Source: an uncultured Clostridia bacterium
GTDB lineage: Bacteria; Bacillota; Clostridia; TANB77; CAG-508
Reading direction: 5' to 3'
Assembly: GCA_934101145.1 (NCBI GenBank)
Contig: CAKOPZ010000004.1
Coordinates: 11,652 to 75,651 of the forward strand
Length of the DNA stretch: 64,000 nucleotides
Shown here piece after piece: positions 3,754-38,340 of this stretch. Each line of letters starts with the position of its first letter. Within the stretch, counting starts at the first letter, position 1. The notes below the pieces were generated by a model. It was given only the letters and a program-made list of their open reading frames with translations, had not been told where the DNA came from and ran no database searches. The position numbers were made by a program, and so were the translations under genes.

Positions 3754-4872
3754 ATGATAGATATAGATTTAATATTGACAATAGCCAAAGAAAGAGATGC
3801 TTCTGATGTGCATTTAATATGTGGAATGAAGCCTATACTAAGAATTATGAGAAAATTAGTTCATATTGAGGAATTAGAAGAACTTACAGTTGACGATATG
3901 AATGATGCATACGATTATTTTGTACGTGGAAATCTAGATAAAGACAAAGTATTCAAAGATACAAGAAAACTAGACTGTTCATATGAATTTGAAGACATAC
4001 GTTTAAGGGTAAATATTTCATATTCTGATGAAATTCCATTGTTTACATTAAGACTTATAAAAAAGAATTTACCTAAATATGAAGAACTGGGTGTACCAGA
4101 TGTTGTAAGGAGGATGACACATCAACCACAAGGATTGATTTTGGTAACAGGAAAAACAAACTCTGGTAAAACAACAACACTTAATGCTTTGATTAATGAA
4201 ATAAATGAGACACAAAATAAAAAGATTTTAACATTGGAGAATCCTGTTGAATATAAACACAAATCAAAAAAATCAGTAATAGTTCAAAAGGAAATTGGTC
4301 TTGGACGCGATTGCTTAACATTTAGTGATGGTGTTAAAAACTCTTTAAGAGAGGACTGTGATATTCTTGTAATAGGTGAGATTAGAGATAAGGAAACAAT
4401 GGAAGCTGCAATTGAAACAGCAGAGTCAGGACATTTGGTTATTGGAACACTGCATACAAAATCATGTGCTGAAACAATAGACAGAATGGTAAATTTCTAT
4501 GAAATAAGAGATCAACAAACTGTAAAATATATGATTTCATCATTATTAAAATTAGTTATATCACAAAGGTTATTACCATCTAAAAGAGGGGATTTAGTAT
4601 TGGTACCAGAAGTTATGGTTGTTGATAATATAATTTCGGGTATAATAAGAAAAGATAAGATAAGCGTTTCTGAAATAGAAGATGCAATTCAAAGCAATAG
4701 CGAAAAGGGAAGTATAGGACTTATAAATTCTATAGCAGAGTTATTTGTCAATGATGTTATTACATTAGAGCAAGCAAAAGCTCAAATAGAAGAGAAAAAT
4801 ATAGAGATTTTAAATAGAACAATAATGCAATTAAAAATAAAAAGAGATAGAGAAAATAGAATAGAACAATAA
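3754..4872 (+). CDS. pilT: Twitching-motility / retraction ATPase (PilT family)
   Basis: ASDVHL motif and Walker A GKTNSGKTTT, at PilT-like length (372 aa) without the GspE N-domain. Confidence 0.85.
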   Translation: MIDIDLILTIAKERDASDVHLICGMKPILRIMRKLVHIEELEELTVDDMNDAYDYFVRGNLDKDKVFKDTRKLDCSYEFEDIRLRVNISYSDEIPLFTLRLIKKNLPKYEELGVPDVVRRMTHQPQGLILVTGKTNSGKTTTLNALINEINETQNKKILTLENPVEYKHKSKKSVIVQKEIGLGRDCLTFSDGVKNSLREDCDILVIGEIRDKETMEAAIETAESGHLVIGTLHTKSCAETIDRMVNFYEIRDQQTVKYMISSLLKLVISQRLLPSKRGDLVLVPEVMVVDNIISGIIRKDKISVSEIEDAIQSNSEKGSIGLINSIAELFVNDVITLEQAKAQIEEKNIEILNRTIMQLKIKRDRENRIEQ

Positions 4873-4923
4873 AATACATATCTATGAATATTAGATATAA
4901 ATAATTGTTAAAAGGAGGAGGAA

Positions 4924-6288
4924 ATGCCAGAGTATAGATACAGAGCGATAACTGATAAGGGACAAATTGTAAATAATAGAGTAGAAGATGTAAATAGAAA
5001 TACTTTAATTAAAAGATTAAAAAACAACAATTTGTTGCCTATTAGTATTACGCAAGTTAGGTATAATAGTAAAAAGAAAAAAGTAAGTAAAAGAAATGTT
5101 ATGGATATTGCAGATATCATGAAACAGGCCGATTCATCTAATATTTTACAAGGTAGAATTGTTAATAAGCCAAAATTTAAAGAAAGAGTTAATCTTGCAC
5201 TTGCTAGGGATGAAAAGGTAACTCCAAGAGATATAATAATTTTTACTCAAAATTTTTATTTACTTAAAAAAGCTAATTTTAATAATATTCATGCATTAAG
5301 TACAATAATTGAAAGTACAGAGAATATGACTTTAAGAGGAGTACTTGAAGACATACTTGCTGGTGTTGAAGATGGTGAATATATGTATACAACAATGGAA
5401 TATTATTCTAATATATTTCCATATCTTTATACAAATATGATTAAGGTTGGAGAGTTATCAGGAAATCTTACAAAATCACTTGAACAAGCTGTAAAGTATA
5501 TGGAAACATCAACTGATACAAGTAATAAGCTTAGAAAAATAATACTTCCAAATGCTATACAATTGGTTCTATTAATTGGTTTATTAATATTTGGTGTAGC
5601 ATATATTATACCTTTAATACAAGAATCTTTTGCTGCTGCAGGAGCTACTACTCAACTTCCTGCAATAACGCTTTGGTTTGTTGATTTTTGTAATCGAGTA
5701 CAGCAATTCTGGTATATTCCAGTGATAATAATTGCAGGAATTGCTACAATTATTGTAACATACATTAATACTCCAAAAGGTAAATATAATTTTCACTATT
5801 TTAAATACAAAATGCCAGTGTTTGGAAGCCTAATTTATGCTATGGATTTTGAAAGATTAATGAAAGCTATGCTTTTAAATTTGGAGAATGGTATGAGAAT
5901 TCAAGAGGCATTAGAGGTTAGTAAATCAGTAGTAAAAAACTATGTTATGCTTTCTATTATTGAAACGGCTATTAACAATATTTTAATTGGTGCATCTTGG
6001 ATAGAGCCATTTGAAAGATCAGGACTTTCATCTTCAATGGAAACTGAAATGCTTAAAATAGGTATGCAAACAGATTTAACTGGAATGATGAGAAAACTTG
6101 TTGAATATATGGAAATTGATATAGAGAACAAAATGCAGAAAGTAATGAGCGTATTACCACAAATTGTATATGCAATTGTTGGTATAGCATTGATTTTCTT
6201 GGTAATTGTAATTATTGTACCTTGTATACAATTGTATATGGGTGATTGGCTATTTGACTCTGTAGACTTACCAGAACAATTCAAATAA
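4924..6288 (+). CDS. pilC: Type IV pilus platform protein (GspF/PilC family)
   Basis: Two GspF-type repeats with interspersed TM segments. It follows pilB/pilT. Confidence 0.85.
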   Translation: MPEYRYRAITDKGQIVNNRVEDVNRNTLIKRLKNNNLLPISITQVRYNSKKKKVSKRNVMDIADIMKQADSSNILQGRIVNKPKFKERVNLALARDEKVTPRDIIIFTQNFYLLKKANFNNIHALSTIIESTENMTLRGVLEDILAGVEDGEYMYTTMEYYSNIFPYLYTNMIKVGELSGNLTKSLEQAVKYMETSTDTSNKLRKIILPNAIQLVLLIGLLIFGVAYIIPLIQESFAAAGATTQLPAITLWFVDFCNRVQQFWYIPVIIIAGIATIIVTYINTPKGKYNFHYFKYKMPVFGSLIYAMDFERLMKAMLLNLENGMRIQEALEVSKSVVKNYVMLSIIETAINNILIGASWIEPFERSGLSSSMETEMLKIGMQTDLTGMMRKLVEYMEIDIENKMQKVMSVLPQIVYAIVGIALIFLVIVIIVPCIQLYMGDWLFDSVDLPEQFK

Positions 6289-6651: not shown

Positions 6652-8598
6652 ATGAAAGAGGAAACATCAGGTATGACTGGTTCTACAGAAAAGAACATAC
6701 CACAAAAAGAAAAACAAACTCGAAGAATGCCAAGAAGAAAAAGTACAAGAATAGATGGCAATAAGAGTACACAAAATGTAGAAGCTAAAAAAAGAAGAAC
6801 TTCAAAAAAGGGAGAAGAAAAAATAAAAGGAAAACTAAGAAAAGAAGAGAAATCTCATTCAGAAGTGACAAAAAGTAACATATATTTGGAAGAAAGAAGA
6901 AAGATGCAAAGAAAACCTAGTATTCCAAAATTTGAATTTAAAAAAGAAAATTTGAAAATTATACCACTAGGTGGATTAGATGAAATCGGAAAAAATATAA
7001 CAGTTTTTGAATATGGAAATGAGATTGTTTTAGTAGACTGTGGACTAGAATTTCCAGAAGATGATATGCTTGGAGTAGATTTAGTTATTCCAGATATCAC
7101 TTATCTTGAAAAAAACAAAGAAAAAATAAAAGGACTTGTAATAACACATGGTCACGAAGATCATATTGGTTCAATACCATATTTACTAAGACAAATTAAT
7201 GTACCAATTTATGCTACAAAATTAACTATTGGATTAATACAAAATAAACTTGAAGAACATAAATTACTTGCAAGTACAAAACTAGTAACAGTTGAACAAG
7301 GTCAAACTGTTAACTTTGGAAATATAAAAGTAGAATTTATAAGAAGTAGCCATAGTATTCCAGATTCTGTAATGCTTGCAATTACCACACCAGCAGGAAC
7401 TGTACTTCATACAGGTGACTTTAAAATTGATTATACACCAATTGATAATCAATTAATGGATTTAGGAAGAATAGCAGAACTTGGGAATAAGGGAATTTTA
7501 GCACTTCTTTCTGATAGTACAAATGCTGAAAGAAAAGGATTCACAATGTCGGAAAGTTCAGTTGGAGAGGTTTTTGATAGATTGTTCCAACATAATTCAA
7601 AAAGAATAGTTGTTGCAACTTTTGCATCAAATGTGCATAGAGTACAACAAATAGTAAATTCAGCTGTAAAATATGGTAGAAAAATTGCAGTATGTGGTAG
7701 AAGTATGATAAATATGATTGAAACAGCAAGAGAACTAGGATATATAGATTCTCCTGAAAATTTATTTATTGATATTGATATGATAAAAAATTATACAGAT
7801 GACCAATTAGTTATAATTACAACAGGAAGTCAAGGAGAGACAATGTCTGCATTAACAAGAATGGCAGCAGGTGAGCACAAAAAAGTTGTTATTACACCAA
7901 ATGATATGGTAATTATTTCTGCAACACCAATACCAGGAAACGAAAAACTTGTATCGAATGTTATAAATGATTTAATGCAAATAGGTGCAGAGGTTGTATA
8001 TAGTGCATTAGAAGATATACACGTATCAGGTCACGCATGTCAAGAAGAGCAAAAATTGATTTTAGCATTAGCAAGACCAAAGTATTTTATACCAGTACAT
8101 GGAGAGTACAAACAACTTAGAGCACATGCAGAAACAGCAAAAAAAATGGGAATACCACCAGAAAATATATTCTTGCTTAATAATGGTAGAGTATTAGAGC
8201 TTAATAAAAAAGAAGCTAAAATTACAACCTCAGTTCCATCAGGAAGAATACTTGTTGATGGTTTAGGTGTTGGAGATGTTGGAAACATAGTACTTCGTGA
8301 TAGACAACATTTATCACAAGATGGACTTATTGTAATAGTTATGACAATGGATTCTTCAACAGGAGAAATTGTTTCAGGTCCAGATGTGGTATCTAGAGGA
8401 TTTGTATATGTTAGAGAATCAGAAAATCTTATGGAAGATGTAAAAAGAGCAATAAGGGACGAAGTAAGAATGTTTGAAGAACATGGAATTCGTGATTGGT
8501 CAACAATAAAATCTACATTAAAAGATAATTTAAGAGACTATATATTCCAAAGAACAAAACGTAACCCTATGATACTACCAATTATAATGGAAGTGTAG
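6652..8598 (+). CDS. rnj: Ribonuclease J with ~95-aa Lys/Arg-rich N-terminal extension
   Basis: Beta-lactamase motif ITHGHEDHIG, beta-CASP and a C-terminal domain. The conserved core starts at KIIPLGGLDEIGKN. Confidence 0.9.
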   Translation: MKEETSGMTGSTEKNIPQKEKQTRRMPRRKSTRIDGNKSTQNVEAKKRRTSKKGEEKIKGKLRKEEKSHSEVTKSNIYLEERRKMQRKPSIPKFEFKKENLKIIPLGGLDEIGKNITVFEYGNEIVLVDCGLEFPEDDMLGVDLVIPDITYLEKNKEKIKGLVITHGHEDHIGSIPYLLRQINVPIYATKLTIGLIQNKLEEHKLLASTKLVTVEQGQTVNFGNIKVEFIRSSHSIPDSVMLAITTPAGTVLHTGDFKIDYTPIDNQLMDLGRIAELGNKGILALLSDSTNAERKGFTMSESSVGEVFDRLFQHNSKRIVVATFASNVHRVQQIVNSAVKYGRKIAVCGRSMINMIETARELGYIDSPENLFIDIDMIKNYTDDQLVIITTGSQGETMSALTRMAAGEHKKVVITPNDMVIISATPIPGNEKLVSNVINDLMQIGAEVVYSALEDIHVSGHACQEEQKLILALARPKYFIPVHGEYKQLRAHAETAKKMGIPPENIFLLNNGRVLELNKKEAKITTSVPSGRILVDGLGVGDVGNIVLRDRQHLSQDGLIVIVMTMDSSTGEIVSGPDVVSRGFVYVRESENLMEDVKRAIRDEVRMFEEHGIRDWSTIKSTLKDNLRDYIFQRTKRNPMILPIIMEV

Positions 8599-11250: not shown

Positions 11251-11306
11251 CTCTGCTAAAGTTTATGATATTACTTGGACAAATATTACTGTGCTTTGTT
11301 ATTTTT

Positions 11307-11341
11307 TATATACTAGGAAATTTCTCATTTCCTAGTATATA
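11307..11341. repeat. Perfect 15-bp-arm palindrome TATATACTAGGAAAT-ttctc-ATTTCCTAGTATATA
   Basis: Read directly from the sequence. The arms contain the TAGGAAAT / ATTTCCTA termini shared by the three peptide cassettes. Confidence 0.8.
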
Positions 11342-25049: not shown

Positions 25050-25874
25050 ATGAATTTGAACGAGAAAATTAGAATTTTGGTGGCTGACGATAATAAGGAA
25101 TTTGGAGATACACTTGTAAGTTATTTAGAAAAAGAAGAAAACTTTGAGGTTGTTGGTATTGCAAGAGACGGCAATCAAGCTGTTGATGAAATAACAATGA
25201 TGAAGCCTGATATTGTTTTGCTTGATATCATTATGCCACATTTAGATGGGCTTGGTGTCTTAGAAAAATTAAATGAAAGAAATATAGAAAATAAACCTAT
25301 GTGTATTATTTTATCAGCGGTTGGACAAGATAAAATTACTCAAAGGGCAATTGATCTTGGTGCTCAATATTACATAGTTAAACCATTTGATATTCAAATT
25401 TTAGTAAAAAGAATAAAAGAACTAAAATATTATCAACCATCACAATATAAAAATAATTTTATTAGTAGAGAAATAAAAACACAATATATAGATATATCCC
25501 CAGAAGAGAAAAAGAATGAAGAAAACTTAGAAGCACTTGTTACAAATGTAATACATGAAGTTGGTGTACCAGCTCATATTAAAGGTTACCAATATTTAAG
25601 AGAAGCAATTATAATGGTAGTAAATAATATTGAAGTTATAAATCAAATAACAAAACAATTATATCCAGATATTGCTAAAAAATATGGAACAACTCCATCA
25701 AGAGTAGAAAGAGCAATACGTCATGCAATAGAAGTTGCATGGGGAAGAGGTCAAGCAGATGTTGTTGAAAGTATATTTGGATATACTGTTTCAGCATCAA
25801 AAGGCAAGCCAACAAATAGTGAATTTATAGCAATGATTGCTGATAAATTAAGACTAGAATTAAAAACAGCGTAA
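25050..25874 (+). CDS. spo0A: Sporulation master regulator Spo0A
   Basis: Receiver domain ([14 protein letters not shown]) plus a Spo0A-C domain ([12 protein letters not shown].., [15 protein letters not shown]). Confidence 0.92.
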
Positions 25875-25880
25875 ATAATA

Positions 25881-25906
25881 AACCCAGTACGATTTTGTAC
25901 CGGGTT
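25881..25906 (+). terminator. Hairpin after spo0A
   Basis: AACCCAGTAC-gatttt-GTACCGGGTT. There is no clear T-run, so efficiency is uncertain. Confidence 0.45.
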
Positions 25907-26213
25907 AAATTATATAGGGGTACACAAAAAAAGATGGTACAAAAGTGCCAGAACATAGACGCTCAACACCAAATTAATATTTAAAGCATATAATGTTCCC
26001 GAAAATAGTCAAACTAATTTTATGTGTAATCCTTTTAAAAATTGATACAATACCTACAATTATAACTTTAGCGATTGATATGATTGATAAACTTTTTTTG
26101 AAAGGGGAAAGTAAAATGAAAAAAATAAATTGCAAGAATGGTAAAGACCTTTGTATATATGGGGTTGCAAAATAAATATGTTTGATGAAGATAGGTAAAT
26201 AATTATAGATAAA

Positions 26214-26246
26214 GGTCGAGGTGGTTCGAGTCCACTCCCAAATCCA
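26214..26246 (+). other. tRNA 3'-half-like fragment (T-arm plus acceptor strand)
   Basis: GGTGG-TTCGAGT-CCACT T-arm followed by CCCAAATCCA. No matching 5' acceptor strand was found upstream. Confidence 0.35.
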
Positions 26247-26574
26247 TTATATAAAGAATAGATGATTAAGTTCATTTATTCTTATTTTTTATTTCTAGGA
26301 AATAGCATTTTAAAATGTATAATTTGTTATATTTTATAATTTCTTTAGAAATTTTGTGCTTTTTGTAATAAAAGAACTAATATGAAAACGTATTGATAAA
26401 AATTAGAGGTTATGATAAAGAAATGAATAAAAAATAATTGTAAAATTTGTGATATTTGCTTGAAAAATGTAAAAATTTATTGTATAGTAAATGTTGTAGG
26501 AAATGAGATAGCAGATATGTTGTGGCTACCACTTTCAATACTCGATACATTCGAGAGCAAGGAGGTGGTTGTTT

Positions 26575-26676
26575 ATGGGATTTATATTATTTTTAATATA
26601 TGCTTTGGGATTCTCCCTAACTGTAAACGTAGCCTTGTTGTGTATTATATACATAATGTGGACTAATAAACAATAA
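26575..26676 (+). CDS. 33-aa hydrophobic peptide MGFILFLIYALGFSLTVNVALLCIIYIMWTNKQ
   Basis: GGAGGTGG lies 6 nt upstream of the ATG. The position and architecture are conserved in copies B and C. It is too short for the ORF track. Confidence 0.5.
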   Translation: MGFILFLIYALGFSLTVNVALLCIIYIMWTNKQ

Positions 26677-26761
26677 AAAACAACACATTCTGCTTTAGTC
26701 GGTTGGAATGTGTTGTTACAACAATTTATATGGTAGCCACATTCTGTGACTCTCATTTTCT
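26672..26761 (-). ncRNA. Predicted ~90-nt antisense RNA of cassette A
   Basis: The start is inferred ~7 nt after the minus-strand TATAAT. The end is the 26679-26717 hairpin, which is followed by a U-run only on the minus strand. Confidence 0.4.
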
Positions 26762-26958
26762 ATCTTTATTATACACAGCTTTTCCATTTTTGTCAAATGG
26801 ATTTTTTTTATTTTTTTACGAAAATTTTTAGTTCATAAAATTGACAAAGAAAAAATTTTCTACTACAATCAATGCAATAAACATATAGAGGTAAATGCAA
26901 TGAATATTTATTGCATTAGTTATTTTTTAAGAAACAAGAGTTTCACATAAAATTCAAT

Positions 26959-27144
26959 ACAACACCATCTCGTGTAGAAAGAGCAATACGTCATGCAATA
27001 GAGGTTGCATGGGGAAGGGGCCAAGCAGATGTTGTTGAAAGTATATTTGGATATACCGTTTCTGCCAGCAAAGGAAAGCCAACAAATAGCGAATTCATTG
27101 CGATGATAGCTGATAAATTAAGACTTGAATTAAAAACAGCGTAA
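26959..27144 (+). pseudogene. Detached duplicate of the last 62 codons of spo0A
   Basis: It translates to exactly the same 62 aa as 25689-25874, with 21 nt differences in 17 codons, all synonymous. The homology continues through the terminator to 27186. Confidence 0.9.
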
Positions 27145-27325
27145 ATAATAAACCCAGTGCGATTTTGTACTGGGTTAAATTATATAAATGTAAAATATTG
27201 GATTATTACACTAGATAAATAAGTAAAAATATACTATACTATTAAGCATAGGAAATGAGAATAAGCAGATGTGGGTGCTACCACTTTACATACGCAGTTT
27301 ATGCTGTGAGAATGGAGGTGGTGCT

Positions 27326-27436
27326 ATGGAAATATTATTAATTCAATTAATATATCTATTATTCTTCGGATTAATAGGAGTTACTATCATAGCAGTTGCC
27401 TTAATCATAACTTTGGTTATTATTTTGAGCAAATAA
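27326..27436 (+). CDS. 36-aa hydrophobic peptide MEILLIQLIYLLFFGLIGVTIIAVALIITLVIILSK
   Basis: GGAGGTGG SD 6 nt upstream of the ATG. It is a close paralog of the copy C peptide (shared IYLL.FGLI...II..ALII.LVIILSK). Confidence 0.55.
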   Translation: MEILLIQLIYLLFFGLIGVTIIAVALIITLVIILSK

Positions 27437-27522
27437 AAAAACACCACATTATGCCCTGCCAAGCTATGTGGTGTTAAACATATTATATATGGTAGCACAC
27501 ATTTCTGTGGCTTTCATTTCCT
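27432..27522 (-). ncRNA. Predicted ~90-nt antisense RNA of cassette B
   Basis: Consensus minus-strand promoter. AACACCACAT/ATGTGGTGTT hairpin plus a U7 run on the minus strand. Confidence 0.45.
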
Positions 27523-27564
27523 ATAATTATTATACATAGATTAAACAGATTTGTCAAACAAAAA

Positions 27565-32983: not shown

Positions 32984-33502
32984 TTAGTTACAATGTGATA
33001 TTTTTTTAAGAATAGTAATAATAATTATCTTTGGAGTTGGTTTTGTATCAACATTATATGAAAAATAATTTTGTAAAATTTCAAAAGGAGTTTCTGCATA
33101 CATAAAATTTGTAGCTTTAATTATATTGTTTTTTATATTCACAACTGATTTTTTATATTTTCGAGCTATAAAAGAATAAACATCACGTTCTAAATTTATT
33201 TCAAGGTTTGGATAAGTTTTATTAATAAACATGATAGCTTCATACAAGTATTGGGTACCAATATGCTTTATATTAAAGCCAATATATAATAATTCATTTA
33301 TAATTTTTTGCTCTTCGGAAATTTTAGAGCAATGAATGGACATATTATTGTATATATGTAATGAATCTGGAATAACATCTATAGGAATGTTTAACTTTGT
33401 GAATTTGTTGGTAAATACATTTAAGGTAAAAAAATCGCAATTGTTTTTTTCTAAATATTTTATAATTTTTTCAATATCTGCTAGTACATATATTTTTCTC
33501 AT
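32984..33502 (-). CDS. Spo0A C-terminal-domain-like DNA-binding protein with truncated receiver
   Basis: GFNIKHIGTQYLYEAIMFI.., VYSFIARKY.. and KPTPKIIIITILKKI align with Spo0A in this window ([39 protein letters not shown]). The N-terminus is only ~55 aa. Confidence 0.6.
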   Translation of the reverse strand: MRKIYVLADIEKIIKYLEKNNCDFFTLNVFTNKFTKLNIPIDVIPDSLHIYNNMSIHCSKISEEQKIINELLYIGFNIKHIGTQYLYEAIMFINKTYPNLEINLERDVYSFIARKYKKSVVNIKNNIIKATNFMYAETPFEILQNYFSYNVDTKPTPKIIIITILKKISHCN

Positions 33503-37674: not shown

Positions 37675-37842
37675 AAAGCATTACAAATAAAAGGCTATTC
37701 TATTAGTTTTGTATACTGATATTACTATCAGGTTTTTGCTAATATTTATGGCAATAACCTAAATGCCAGGAAACCATCCGCCGAATCTTTCGATAAGTTT
37801 CCATCCTCGTCAACACATATATTTTGTGTCCAGGCGCTTTTT
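37675..37842 (-). ncRNA. glmS ribozyme
   Basis: The minus strand reads AGCGCCTGGAC...GACGAGGATGGAAACTTATCGAAAGATTCGGCGGATGGTTTCCTGGC, matching the conserved glmS ribozyme core directly upstream of glmS. Confidence 0.85.
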
Positions 37843-38084
37843 ATTTATAAATTATCCTCCTTTCAAAAAGTGCATTTGCAAAACTTCTCTAGTTATGTCA
37901 TTATATTACTATAGATTCAAAATTGTGTCAAATTGATTAATGAATAAACTGGCAAAAACTTGTTCTTGAGTATTGATTTTTATATTCTTACATGATATAC
38001 TAGTTCTTGTAGGAAATGAGAATAAGCAGATGTGGTTTGCCACTTTTAATCCACAACTTATGTTGTGAGTGAGGAGGTGGTGCT

Positions 38085-38195
38085 ATGATAGAAGCAGTTT
38101 TATTAGAAATAATATATCTACTTTCATTTGGCTTAATTGCCGAAACTATTATAGTGTTTGCCTTAATTATACTGGTTATAATTTTAAGCAAATAA
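38085..38195 (+). CDS. 36-aa hydrophobic peptide MIEAVLLEIIYLLSFGLIAETIIVFALIILVIILSK
   Basis: GGAGGTGG SD 6 nt upstream. Paralog of the copy B peptide. Confidence 0.55.
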   Translation: MIEAVLLEIIYLLSFGLIAETIIVFALIILVIILSK

Positions 38196-38283
38196 AATAA
38201 AAAAAACACATCTGTACTTGCCCGGTTAGATGTGTTTTTTACATATTCAGTGGTAAACCACGTTTGTGGATTCTCTATTTCCT
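38196..38283 (-). ncRNA. Predicted antisense RNA of cassette C
   Basis: Minus-strand promoter at 38318-38290. The AAACACATCT/AGATGTGTTT hairpin is flanked by A and T runs, so it can terminate in both directions. Confidence 0.4.
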
Positions 38284-38340
38284 ACTTTTATTATAATCAA
38301 TTGTGTTCAAAAAGTCAATAAAAAAGGAGAAAATTTTGAA

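Follow-up and report, generated by a model that had tools for sequence, protein, structure and literature searches.

The window analysed here, a 64,000-nt stretch of DNA from an uncultured human-gut Clostridia genome, carries three short cassettes. Copies A (26460-26796), B (27212-27557) and C (37973-38318) have one common layout: a weak sense promoter, a leader of ~78 nt, an anti-Shine-Dalgarno element (anti-SD), a small hairpin and the Shine-Dalgarno sequence (SD), an open reading frame (ORF) of 33-36 amino acids (aa), a hairpin with a U-tract on the minus strand and, finally, a near-consensus antisense promoter. The initial annotation had described A and B as sister cassettes sharing such elements apart from the anti-SD, which it did not note, and reading and scanning the sequence located every one of them at the coordinates given below. 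The third copy to which it alluded is copy C, which we found by motif search between the glmS ribozyme and uvrC. In a three-way alignment of A, B and C the mean column identity is 75%, and the functional motifs are invariant. The layout, its conservation, the pairings with their covariation and the relative promoter quality are read directly from the DNA; all conclusions drawn from them rest on sequence and thermodynamic prediction. The features of the three copies are as follows.

Copy A
26460..26488, plus strand: sense promoter TTGAAA-17-TATAGT (10/12 consensus; position kept in homologs)
26497..26531, plus strand: 5' clamp arm of the leader, IR-L (TAGGAAATGAGA...GTGGCTACC), from inverted repeat, folds and covariation
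26529..26536, plus strand: anti-SD CCACTTTC, pairs with the SD
26541..26555, plus strand: leader hairpin P3, CTCGA/TCGAG (5/5 pairs compensated among homologs)
26561..26568, plus strand: SD GGAGGTGG (core AGGTGGT invariant in the homolog alignment)
26575..26676, plus strand: peptide ORF, 33 aa, MGFILFLIYALGFSLTVNVALLCIIYIMWTNKQ (homologs: P0132 and the L004 copies)
26679..26717, either strand: hairpin AACAACACATTC/GAATGTGTTGTT, putative antisense-RNA terminator (A-run upstream, no T-run downstream)
26731..26762, plus strand: 3' clamp arm of the trailer, IR-R (TGGTAGCCAC...TCTCATTTTCTA), from inverted repeat and covariation
26672..26761, minus strand: predicted antisense RNA of ~90 nt (5' tail, stem-loop SL1, AU linker, terminator, U-run), from the predicted fold
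26768..26796, minus strand: antisense promoter TTGACA-17-TATAAT (perfect consensus)

Copy B
27212..27240, plus strand: sense promoter TAGATA-17-TATACT (9/12 consensus)
27249..27283, plus strand: 5' clamp arm of the leader, beginning with TAGGAAATGAGA (inverted repeat, covariation)
27281..27287, plus strand: anti-SD CCACTTT, pairs with the SD
27293..27308, plus strand: leader hairpin P3, CGCAG/CTGTG (read directly; covariation)
27314..27321, plus strand: SD GGAGGTGG (read directly)
27326..27436, plus strand: peptide ORF, 36 aa, MEILLIQLIYLLFFGLIGVTIIAVALIITLVIILSK (homologs, structure prediction)
27440..27475, either strand: hairpin, putative antisense-RNA terminator (A-run upstream, no T-run downstream)
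27490..27523, plus strand: 3' clamp arm of the trailer (inverted repeat, covariation)
27434..27522, minus strand: predicted antisense RNA of ~89 nt (predicted fold)
27529..27557, minus strand: antisense promoter TTGACA-17-TATAAT (perfect consensus)

Copy C
37973..38001, plus strand: sense promoter TTGATT-17-TATACT
38010..38084, plus strand: leader with clamp arm, anti-SD, P3 and SD
38085..38195, plus strand: peptide ORF, 36 aa, MIEAVLLEIIYLLSFGLIAETIIVFALIILVIILSK
38201..38241, either strand: hairpin with A-run and T-run, putative bidirectional terminator
38250..38284, plus strand: 3' clamp arm of the trailer
38197..38283, minus strand: predicted antisense RNA of ~87 nt
38290..38318, minus strand: antisense promoter TTGACT-17-TATAAT

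Promoters, peptide and distribution of the cassettes

The antisense promoters of A and B, initially called perfect, do read TTGACA-17-TATAAT (26796-26768 and 27557-27529, minus strand). The string TTGACA-N17-TATAAT occurs five times in the window, where 0.08 occurrences are expected, and two of the five are these promoters; since the whole layout moreover recurs in 62 loci elsewhere (see below), it is not a product of chance. Among homologs the antisense promoter matches the consensus at 11.6/12 positions on average (12/12 in 38/55) and the sense promoter at 9.0/12. The -10 box TATAAT is present in 52/55 antisense and 3/54 sense promoters, the -35 box TTGACA in 42/55 and 4/54, and the 17-nt spacer in 49/55 and 51/54, respectively, while the distance from the antisense promoter to the adjoining repeat is fixed at 5 nt in 52/55. 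Judged by consensus match, the antisense promoter is much stronger than the sense promoter. A conserved string, TTTGTTCGCT(T/A)G, lies from ~10 nt upstream of the sense -35 box and overlaps this box in roughly half of the cassettes (e.g. L005, L011, L048 and L060); it may serve as an operator or a UP-like element. We considered and discarded a LexA/Cheo box near the sense start, since a GAAC-N4-GTT-like string at the sense promoter occurs in just a few homologs and is not general.

The hairpin past the stop codon has a median stability of -14 kcal/mol and falls into three sequence classes whose stems differ and yet always pair, which bears out the initial view that the stems vary together. All classes have a sense-strand A-run directly upstream, corresponding to the U-tract of the antisense RNA, and a full T-run downstream is confined to the C-type class. 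The proposed restriction of the U-run to the minus strand therefore holds for A and B but not for copy C, which has U-runs on both sides. The predicted antisense RNAs of 87-90 nt comprise a short single-stranded 5' tail, the stem-loop SL1, an AU-rich linker and the terminator. SL1 is kept with stems that differ between lineages (CCAC:GUGG, CACA:UGUG, CAAC:GUUG); covariation of SL1 and the terminator was judged per sequence, as the three classes align out of register column-wise. At the sequence level, each cassette contains a gene for an antisense RNA, complete with promoter and terminator. This gene lies wholly 3' of the stop codon and would be complementary to the 3' untranslated region (UTR) of a read-through mRNA. 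The length of ~90 nt proposed initially agrees with these predictions, whereas the proposed overlap with the mRNA 3' end does not reach into the ORF beyond the stop codon and concerns solely the read-through 3' UTR. Such an overlap requires the sense RNA to read through the hairpin, which the covariation and wobble bias described in the next section support. A small ORF on the antisense RNA was rejected, being unconserved: copy C has no ATG, and copy B would encode 17 aa.

Structure prediction with AlphaFold2 (AF2) from a 20-sequence alignment gave one continuous helix over residues 2-35, with a predicted local distance difference test (pLDDT) score of 97. Family members begin with an acidic N-terminus (M-[I/V]-E), continue with a long hydrophobic stretch and close with a C-terminal K or short K/R-containing tail, for example ...ILSK, ...ILSKEKTHL and ...LLRRQ, or, in the A-type, ...WTNKQ and ...KNWVDKQLHK. 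The cassettes encode a small (<60 aa) predicted membrane peptide as type I systems do, of 33 and 36 aa, with a single helix and an ORF kept across 57 assemblies. Most homologs are annotated as proteins of 55-60 aa, as gene callers begin at an ATG inside TAGGAAATGAGA in the leader. We rejected this longer ORF: in A and C the added stretch is either in another frame or interrupted by a stop. Because the leader-encoded extension is not conserved as amino acids, the true product appears to be the 36-aa peptide. Size variants occur elsewhere: locus L050 (1436-1492, minus strand) holds a divergent cassette with a 39-aa peptide, and L004 holds two tandem A-type cassettes ~500 bp apart (4399-4477 and 4907-4984, both minus strand) whose 37-aa peptides end in a basic tail (..YKNWVDKQLHK). 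This tandem pair lies ~1 kb from a B/C-type cassette on the opposite strand.

To chart the distribution of the family, a profile of the three peptides was run against a large protein collection, where it found 222 homologs, all of them unnamed and devoid of Pfam domains; an exhaustive profile search gave 71 clusters at 50% identity, all small proteins. A DNA pattern anchored solely on the SD/start and the last codons of the ORF matched 62 loci. These are spread over 57 species-level assemblies obtained from the gut of humans, chickens, rabbits, goats, sheep and mice, which carry the labels Clostridia, Clostridium or Clostridiaceae and in one case Candidatus Scatovivens. From these loci and the window we drew a set of 62 distinct cassettes. 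About 58/62 carry the leader motif 63-70 nt before the SD, an inverted copy of it 68-85 nt past the stop codon and, 5 nt beyond that copy, the reverse complement of TATAAT-17-TTGACA; just two of the 62 lack an intact peptide ORF. The initial annotation had held that its reading would fall if homologs did not conserve the ORF and the paired promoters; they conserve both. It had also suggested a covariance model, and a model of the leader (78 positions, 12 pairs; E-values are rough owing to a shortened calibration) recovers exactly three copies in the window, at 57-95 bits, and extra copies in other loci, including the tandem A-type pair of L004. Where gene callers misannotate these loci by starting at the leader ATG, the leader model finds the cassettes cleanly. 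A motif match at 11323 was dismissed as a further copy. It belongs to an unrelated, perfect palindromic hairpin, ATATACTAGGAAATGAGAAATTTCCTAGTATAT (11290-11335, minus strand), which contains the leader motif by chance and lies upstream of a small membrane-protein ORF.

In several assemblies, cassettes are found on two or three different contigs. The carrying contigs are mostly very short (protein hits P0001-P0120), which is consistent with a repeated element breaking assemblies. Pfam-A and NCBIfam contain no family matching the peptides at E-values up to 10, and Rfam gave just chance-level matches in the cassette region (E >= 2). Searches with PHROGs and PADLOC returned no match to the cassette family, and plasmid and phage collections no blastn match to the cassettes. 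An origin from viral contigs was discarded, the three pattern matches there lacking the leader and being due to chance. Full-text literature searches, with the peptide strings and for new metagenomic type I toxin-antitoxin families, returned no earlier description. The cassettes look like an undescribed, widely conserved family in uncultured gut Clostridia.

Predicted pairing within the sense RNA

The first ~35 nt of the leader form an imperfect inverted repeat with ~35 nt just inside the antisense promoter, a feature missing from the initial annotation. It follows that both RNAs would start nearly alike and that a sense RNA reading through the hairpin would have complementary ends. RNAalifold, applied to 53 distinct cassettes, predicts this long-range helix (the clamp) unprompted, and the minimum free energy folds of A, B and C all have closed ends. 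We tested a combined structure consisting of the clamp, the anti-SD CCAC[U/C]UU paired with the SD, and P3, counting pairs per cell: 98.6% of cells are paired, compared with 38-54% when the partners are slid. Ten pairs have changed on both sides, over 96 cells, and 0/500 shuffles reach the observed values; the cassette sequences are related, so these covariation counts, like the wobble counts below, are of non-independent events. The small leader hairpin was initially reported to keep its structure while its sequence changes, and all of its pairs (5/5) are indeed compensated. Within one genome the inner clamp arms of A, B and C differ (GGCTACC, GTGCTACC and GTTTGCC), and each fits its own trailer only. 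In the A-type cassettes of L004, a one-base insertion in one clamp arm is matched in the other, GGTTTTGCC with GGCAAAACC.

In two loci, L010 (~6890-7029) and L039 (~4565-4700), the leader is interrupted by an insertion of ~60 nt that has a terminal inverted repeat of its own (AACGCTTACC...GGTAGCGTT). The insertion sits between TAGGAAATGAG and ATAAGCAG and splits the outer clamp arm from the remaining leader.

A perfect repeat pairs equally well on either strand, and hence the mismatches alone can tell the strands apart. The leader:trailer duplex is predicted to be more stable on the sense strand in 52/53 cassettes (mean -37.8 versus -31.1 kcal/mol). Among transition differences between the arms, 121 are wobble-compatible on the sense strand and 27 are incompatible, and each of the three classes shows this same bias (37:10, 44:7 and 40:10). 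These results indicate that the clamp pairing has been selected in the sense RNA, which would read through the hairpin; given this covariation and wobble bias, the mRNA is expected to extend past the hairpin to the trailer. Predicted folds and covariation together thus point to 5'-3' long-distance pairing of the Hok/Sok and AapA/IsoA type.

The start region is predicted to be occluded as well. The SD pairs with the upstream anti-SD whether the leader alone, the hairpin-terminated RNA or the full-length RNA is folded. The anti-SD:SD pairs are kept at 99.4%, and the sole variable position switches from U to C opposite an invariant G (19/53). In the divergent leader of L050, which lacks P3, a changed anti-SD, GCCUCC, pairs directly with GGAGG. 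RNAalifold also pairs the SD and AUG with UCAUAG..UUGCCUU within the ORF. Rare codons are invariant in this ORF segment (27386-27406 in the B ORF and 38145-38165 in the C ORF): Ala is GCC in 38/38, although GCC makes up 7% of Ala codons in window genes, and Ile is ATC in 33/33, against 3% of Ile codons. This invariance of rare codons indicates an RNA-level constraint on the ORF segment opposite the SD/AUG. Opening the SD..AUG region is predicted to cost 9.6 kcal/mol in the free full-length RNA and 12.1 kcal/mol when the last ~90 nt are excluded from folding as a stand-in for the duplex with the antisense RNA; this increase is seen in 47/53 cassettes. With a predicted opening cost of ~10 kcal/mol, the mRNA would be structurally silenced by SD occlusion, as in type I systems.

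A candidate toxin-antitoxin module, its setting and its alternatives

We propose, with a probability of about 0.72, that each cassette is a chromosomal type I toxin-antitoxin-like module. The initial annotation had suggested the same, and its suggestion gains support at the sequence level: the layout, the ORF, the promoters and the minus-strand terminator are kept in homologs, and the cassettes are multi-copy and strain-variable. Type I toxin mRNAs have been described as typically combining an occluded SD with an inert primary transcript and 5'-3' long-distance pairing (PMC6733600).

We then outline how such a module might operate; the transcripts, the toxicity of the peptide, the nucleases and the order of events are those that we infer. 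The weak sigma-A-type promoter would produce an mRNA of ~275 nt for a single-helix membrane peptide of 33-36 residues, the presumed toxin. This mRNA would be translationally inert, with its SD held by the anti-SD and the AUG/SD also able to pair within the ORF. It would pass the hairpin, and its last ~35 nt would pair with its first ~35 nt to form a 5'-3' clamp that stacks on the SD helix and begins at or beside the first nucleotide. The strong convergent promoter would meanwhile supply an abundant ~90-nt antisense RNA, perfectly complementary to the mRNA 3' UTR including the 3' clamp arm. After nucleating on the single-stranded linker and complementary loops, the antisense RNA would invade the clamp, which it could outcompete because the clamp is imperfect and its own complementarity is perfect, and form a ~90-bp duplex, an expected RNase III substrate. 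In Firmicutes, 5'-terminal stems protect mRNAs. The freed mRNA 5' end would be exposed to 5' exonuclease, and the freed leader could lengthen the SD-sequestering helix. If the supply of antisense RNA drops, the clamped, stable mRNA would persist and some peptide would be made.

More tentatively, and with odds we place somewhat below even, the antisense RNA may act by clamp displacement, as a better-matched competitor of the mRNA leader for the trailer, so that binding at the 3' end would control both the exposure of the 5' end to exonuclease and the length of the SD helix. On this account the logic would be one undescribed for type I families, in a family confined to uncultured gut Clostridia and wrongly annotated as hypothetical proteins of 55-60 aa.

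Several points weigh against the toxin-antitoxin proposal. Both transcription start sites, placed by promoter geometry, as well as the sense 3' end and the antisense RNA itself are sequence predictions. Many type I toxins have a strongly basic tail, which the B and C peptides lack; these two also contain acidic residues, with E21 lying within the C-type helix. In every state the SD is predicted to be strongly occluded (~10 kcal/mol), which means that an activation step must exist. The C-type hairpin appears bidirectional, and read-through may be minor there. The homolog alignments show no conserved terminator for the sense strand, either past the trailer or beyond the antisense promoter, where there are scattered T-runs only. 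Strand-biased mutation could in principle account for part of the wobble bias; however, the trailer should be transcribed more strongly in the antisense direction, which would be expected to bias mutation in the opposite way.

The 3' end of spo0A together with its terminator, 228 nt in all, is duplicated at 25689-25916 and 26959-27186 (90% identical). The two duplicates are separated by copy A and a tRNA 3' fragment, and copy B comes after the second. The duplicate holds the last ~190 nt of spo0A, and the downstream relic is 97% identical to the functional spo0A end of L002/L003, closer than to that of its own genome, which suggests recombination or allele replacement at the spo0A locus. The tRNA fragment (26213-26246, plus strand), between spo0A and copy A, consists of a T-arm, GGTGGTTCGAGTCCAC, and an acceptor strand ending in CCA; ARAGORN detected no complete tRNA gene there, and the fragment looks like the attachment-site remnant of an integrative element. 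A protein of 172 aa with a Spo0A_C domain and no receiver domain is encoded ~7 kb from spo0A (32984-33502, minus strand). Strain L002, 98.7% identical over the flanks, lacks copy B: in place of window positions 27158-27564 it has 49 nt with a different terminator hairpin (L002 5100-5160) and no target-site duplication. Copy C is at the same site in both strains examined. It directly adjoins the glmS ribozyme (Rfam, 91 bits; 37691-37849, minus strand), which lies upstream of glmS, and sits between glmS and uvrC.

The alternative that fares best, although we consider it unlikely, is a regulated non-toxic small membrane protein, for instance a modulator of a membrane complex, whose level the antisense RNA and the mRNA structures keep low or conditional. 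The near-neutral or acidic B and C peptides, set against classic basic-tailed toxins, and the fixed site of copy C would suit such a protein. It would less readily explain at least three paralogous copies per genome at unrelated sites, the tandem duplicates (A and B in the window, and L004), the strain-level loss of copy B, a start region that is triply occluded, or a near-consensus antisense promoter opposite a weak sense promoter. Multi-copy, tandem and strain-variable loci with an occluded start and a strong antisense promoter are typical of type I toxins and unusual for housekeeping small proteins (PMC6733600).

Less probable still is a par/Fst-like mode, in which the sense mRNA would stop at the shared hairpin, the two RNAs would meet solely through their complementary terminator stem-loops and the leader/trailer likeness would reflect a 5' sequence that both RNAs need for a common protein or processing step, rather than pairing of the two arms. 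The C-type hairpin, with its A- and T-runs, should terminate both strands, the two RNAs open with nearly identical 12 nt, and the leader model matches the antisense strand weakly, all as this mode would have it. However, a shared protein site would not be expected to differ between A, B and C such that each arm fits its own partner only, nor to show compensated changes that include an indel on both arms (GGTTTTGCC with GGCAAAACC). The mismatches are overwhelmingly G-U on the sense strand, the A and B classes have no sense-side U-run, and the repeats are inverted, so that the 5' ends cannot pair like DRa/DRb of par.

A miniature mobile element with the ~35-bp inverted repeats as transposition ends and an incidental ORF and promoter-like motifs is highly improbable: repeats flanking a ~230-bp core, several copies at unrelated intergenic sites and presence that varies among strains are what it would predict, but the conserved unit runs ~35-45 bp past each repeat into the promoters, the empty L002 site bears the mark neither of a clean excision nor of a target duplication, an intact ORF with conserved amino acids is missing from just two of 62 distinct cassettes, the strand-specific wobble bias fits RNA rather than DNA ends, and no plasmid, phage or viral-contig match was found.

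Comparison with known systems

Judged by the features that sequence can test, namely a small membrane peptide, a gene for an antisense RNA and occlusion of the SD, the cassette would work like a type I toxin-antitoxin system, and the question is how it relates to the known ones. The initial annotation had likened A and B to TxpA/RatA and BsrG/SR4. The likeness in layout stands: txpA/RatA and bsrG/SR4 of B. subtilis are likewise convergent genes with a hydrophobic single-helix peptide of ~36-38 aa and an antisense RNA of ~90-180 nt acting on the 3' part of the toxin mRNA, but Pfam-A, NCBIfam and Rfam give no sequence relationship, either of peptide or of RNA. The cassettes differ further in that the antisense RNA has no coding overlap past the stop codon and in that they lie outside prophage-like regions. 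To our knowledge, pairing of the mRNA 5' end with the antisense target is not described for bsrG or txpA. In both of these the SD is partly sequestered, and SR4, although it acts on the 3' end of its target, tightens the SD helix of bsrG (PMC3834814). The predicted rise of 2.5 kcal/mol in the opening cost of the cassette start region when the 3' region is sequestered parallels this behaviour.

In hok/Sok and aapA/IsoA, as predicted here, the full-length toxin mRNA closes by 5'-3' pairing, there are several anti-SDs upstream of and within the ORF with constraint on synonymous sites, and loci are multi-copy and chromosomal (PMC6733600). There, however, it is the 3' end that hides the translation signals, and once the 3' end has been trimmed the antitoxin binds the 5' region, whereas in the cassettes a local upstream anti-SD would mask the SD, the clamp would merely stack on that helix and the antitoxin would be antisense to the 3' arm. 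The Pfam search found no peptide homology to Hok_Gef or AapA. Modules of C. difficile (CD2517.1/RCd8 and others), the type I systems known from Clostridia, resemble the cassettes in their Clostridia host, their toxins of 34-59 aa with a transmembrane helix, their cis-antisense antitoxins and their multiple paralogs; they are tied to prophages, CRISPR arrays or c-di-GMP riboswitches and have lysine-rich peptide tails (PMC6563280). The cassettes, in contrast, occupy ordinary intergenic regions (spo0A-nifU and glmS-uvrC), and the Pfam, NCBIfam and Rfam libraries revealed no similarity to these modules, CD sequences not having been compared directly.

The cassettes and par (fst, RNA I/RNA II) both converge on a common hairpin with repeats at the 5' ends, and the putative bidirectional terminator of the C-type copies adds to the likeness. 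In par of E. faecalis pAD1, transcription is convergent towards a common hairpin, repeats lie at the 5' ends of both genes and a 5' structure limits translation. Its repeats are direct (DRa/DRb), which makes the 5' ends of the two RNAs complementary; those of the cassettes are inverted, the 5' ends are alike, and the trailer is complementary to both the leader and the antisense RNA. The shared bidirectional terminator of par has a putative counterpart in the C-type class only, A and B having no sense-side U-run, and the Pfam search showed no peptide relationship to Fst.

Type I families are few, narrowly distributed and resistant to homology searches, and the cassettes would add one that spans at least 57 species-level genomes. 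Their unusually rich natural covariation offers material for studying how antisense action at one end of an mRNA controls the other. By sequence, the cassettes are a new family outside TxpA/BsrG, Fst, Hok and AapA, in which the predicted antitoxin targets the 3' arm of a toxin-mRNA clamp. Two designs so far known separately, the 5'-3' clamp and the 3' antisense RNA, would be united in one RNA architecture, and the best reading of the family is that it combines a clamp in the style of Hok/AapA with a 3' antisense RNA in the style of RatA/SR4.

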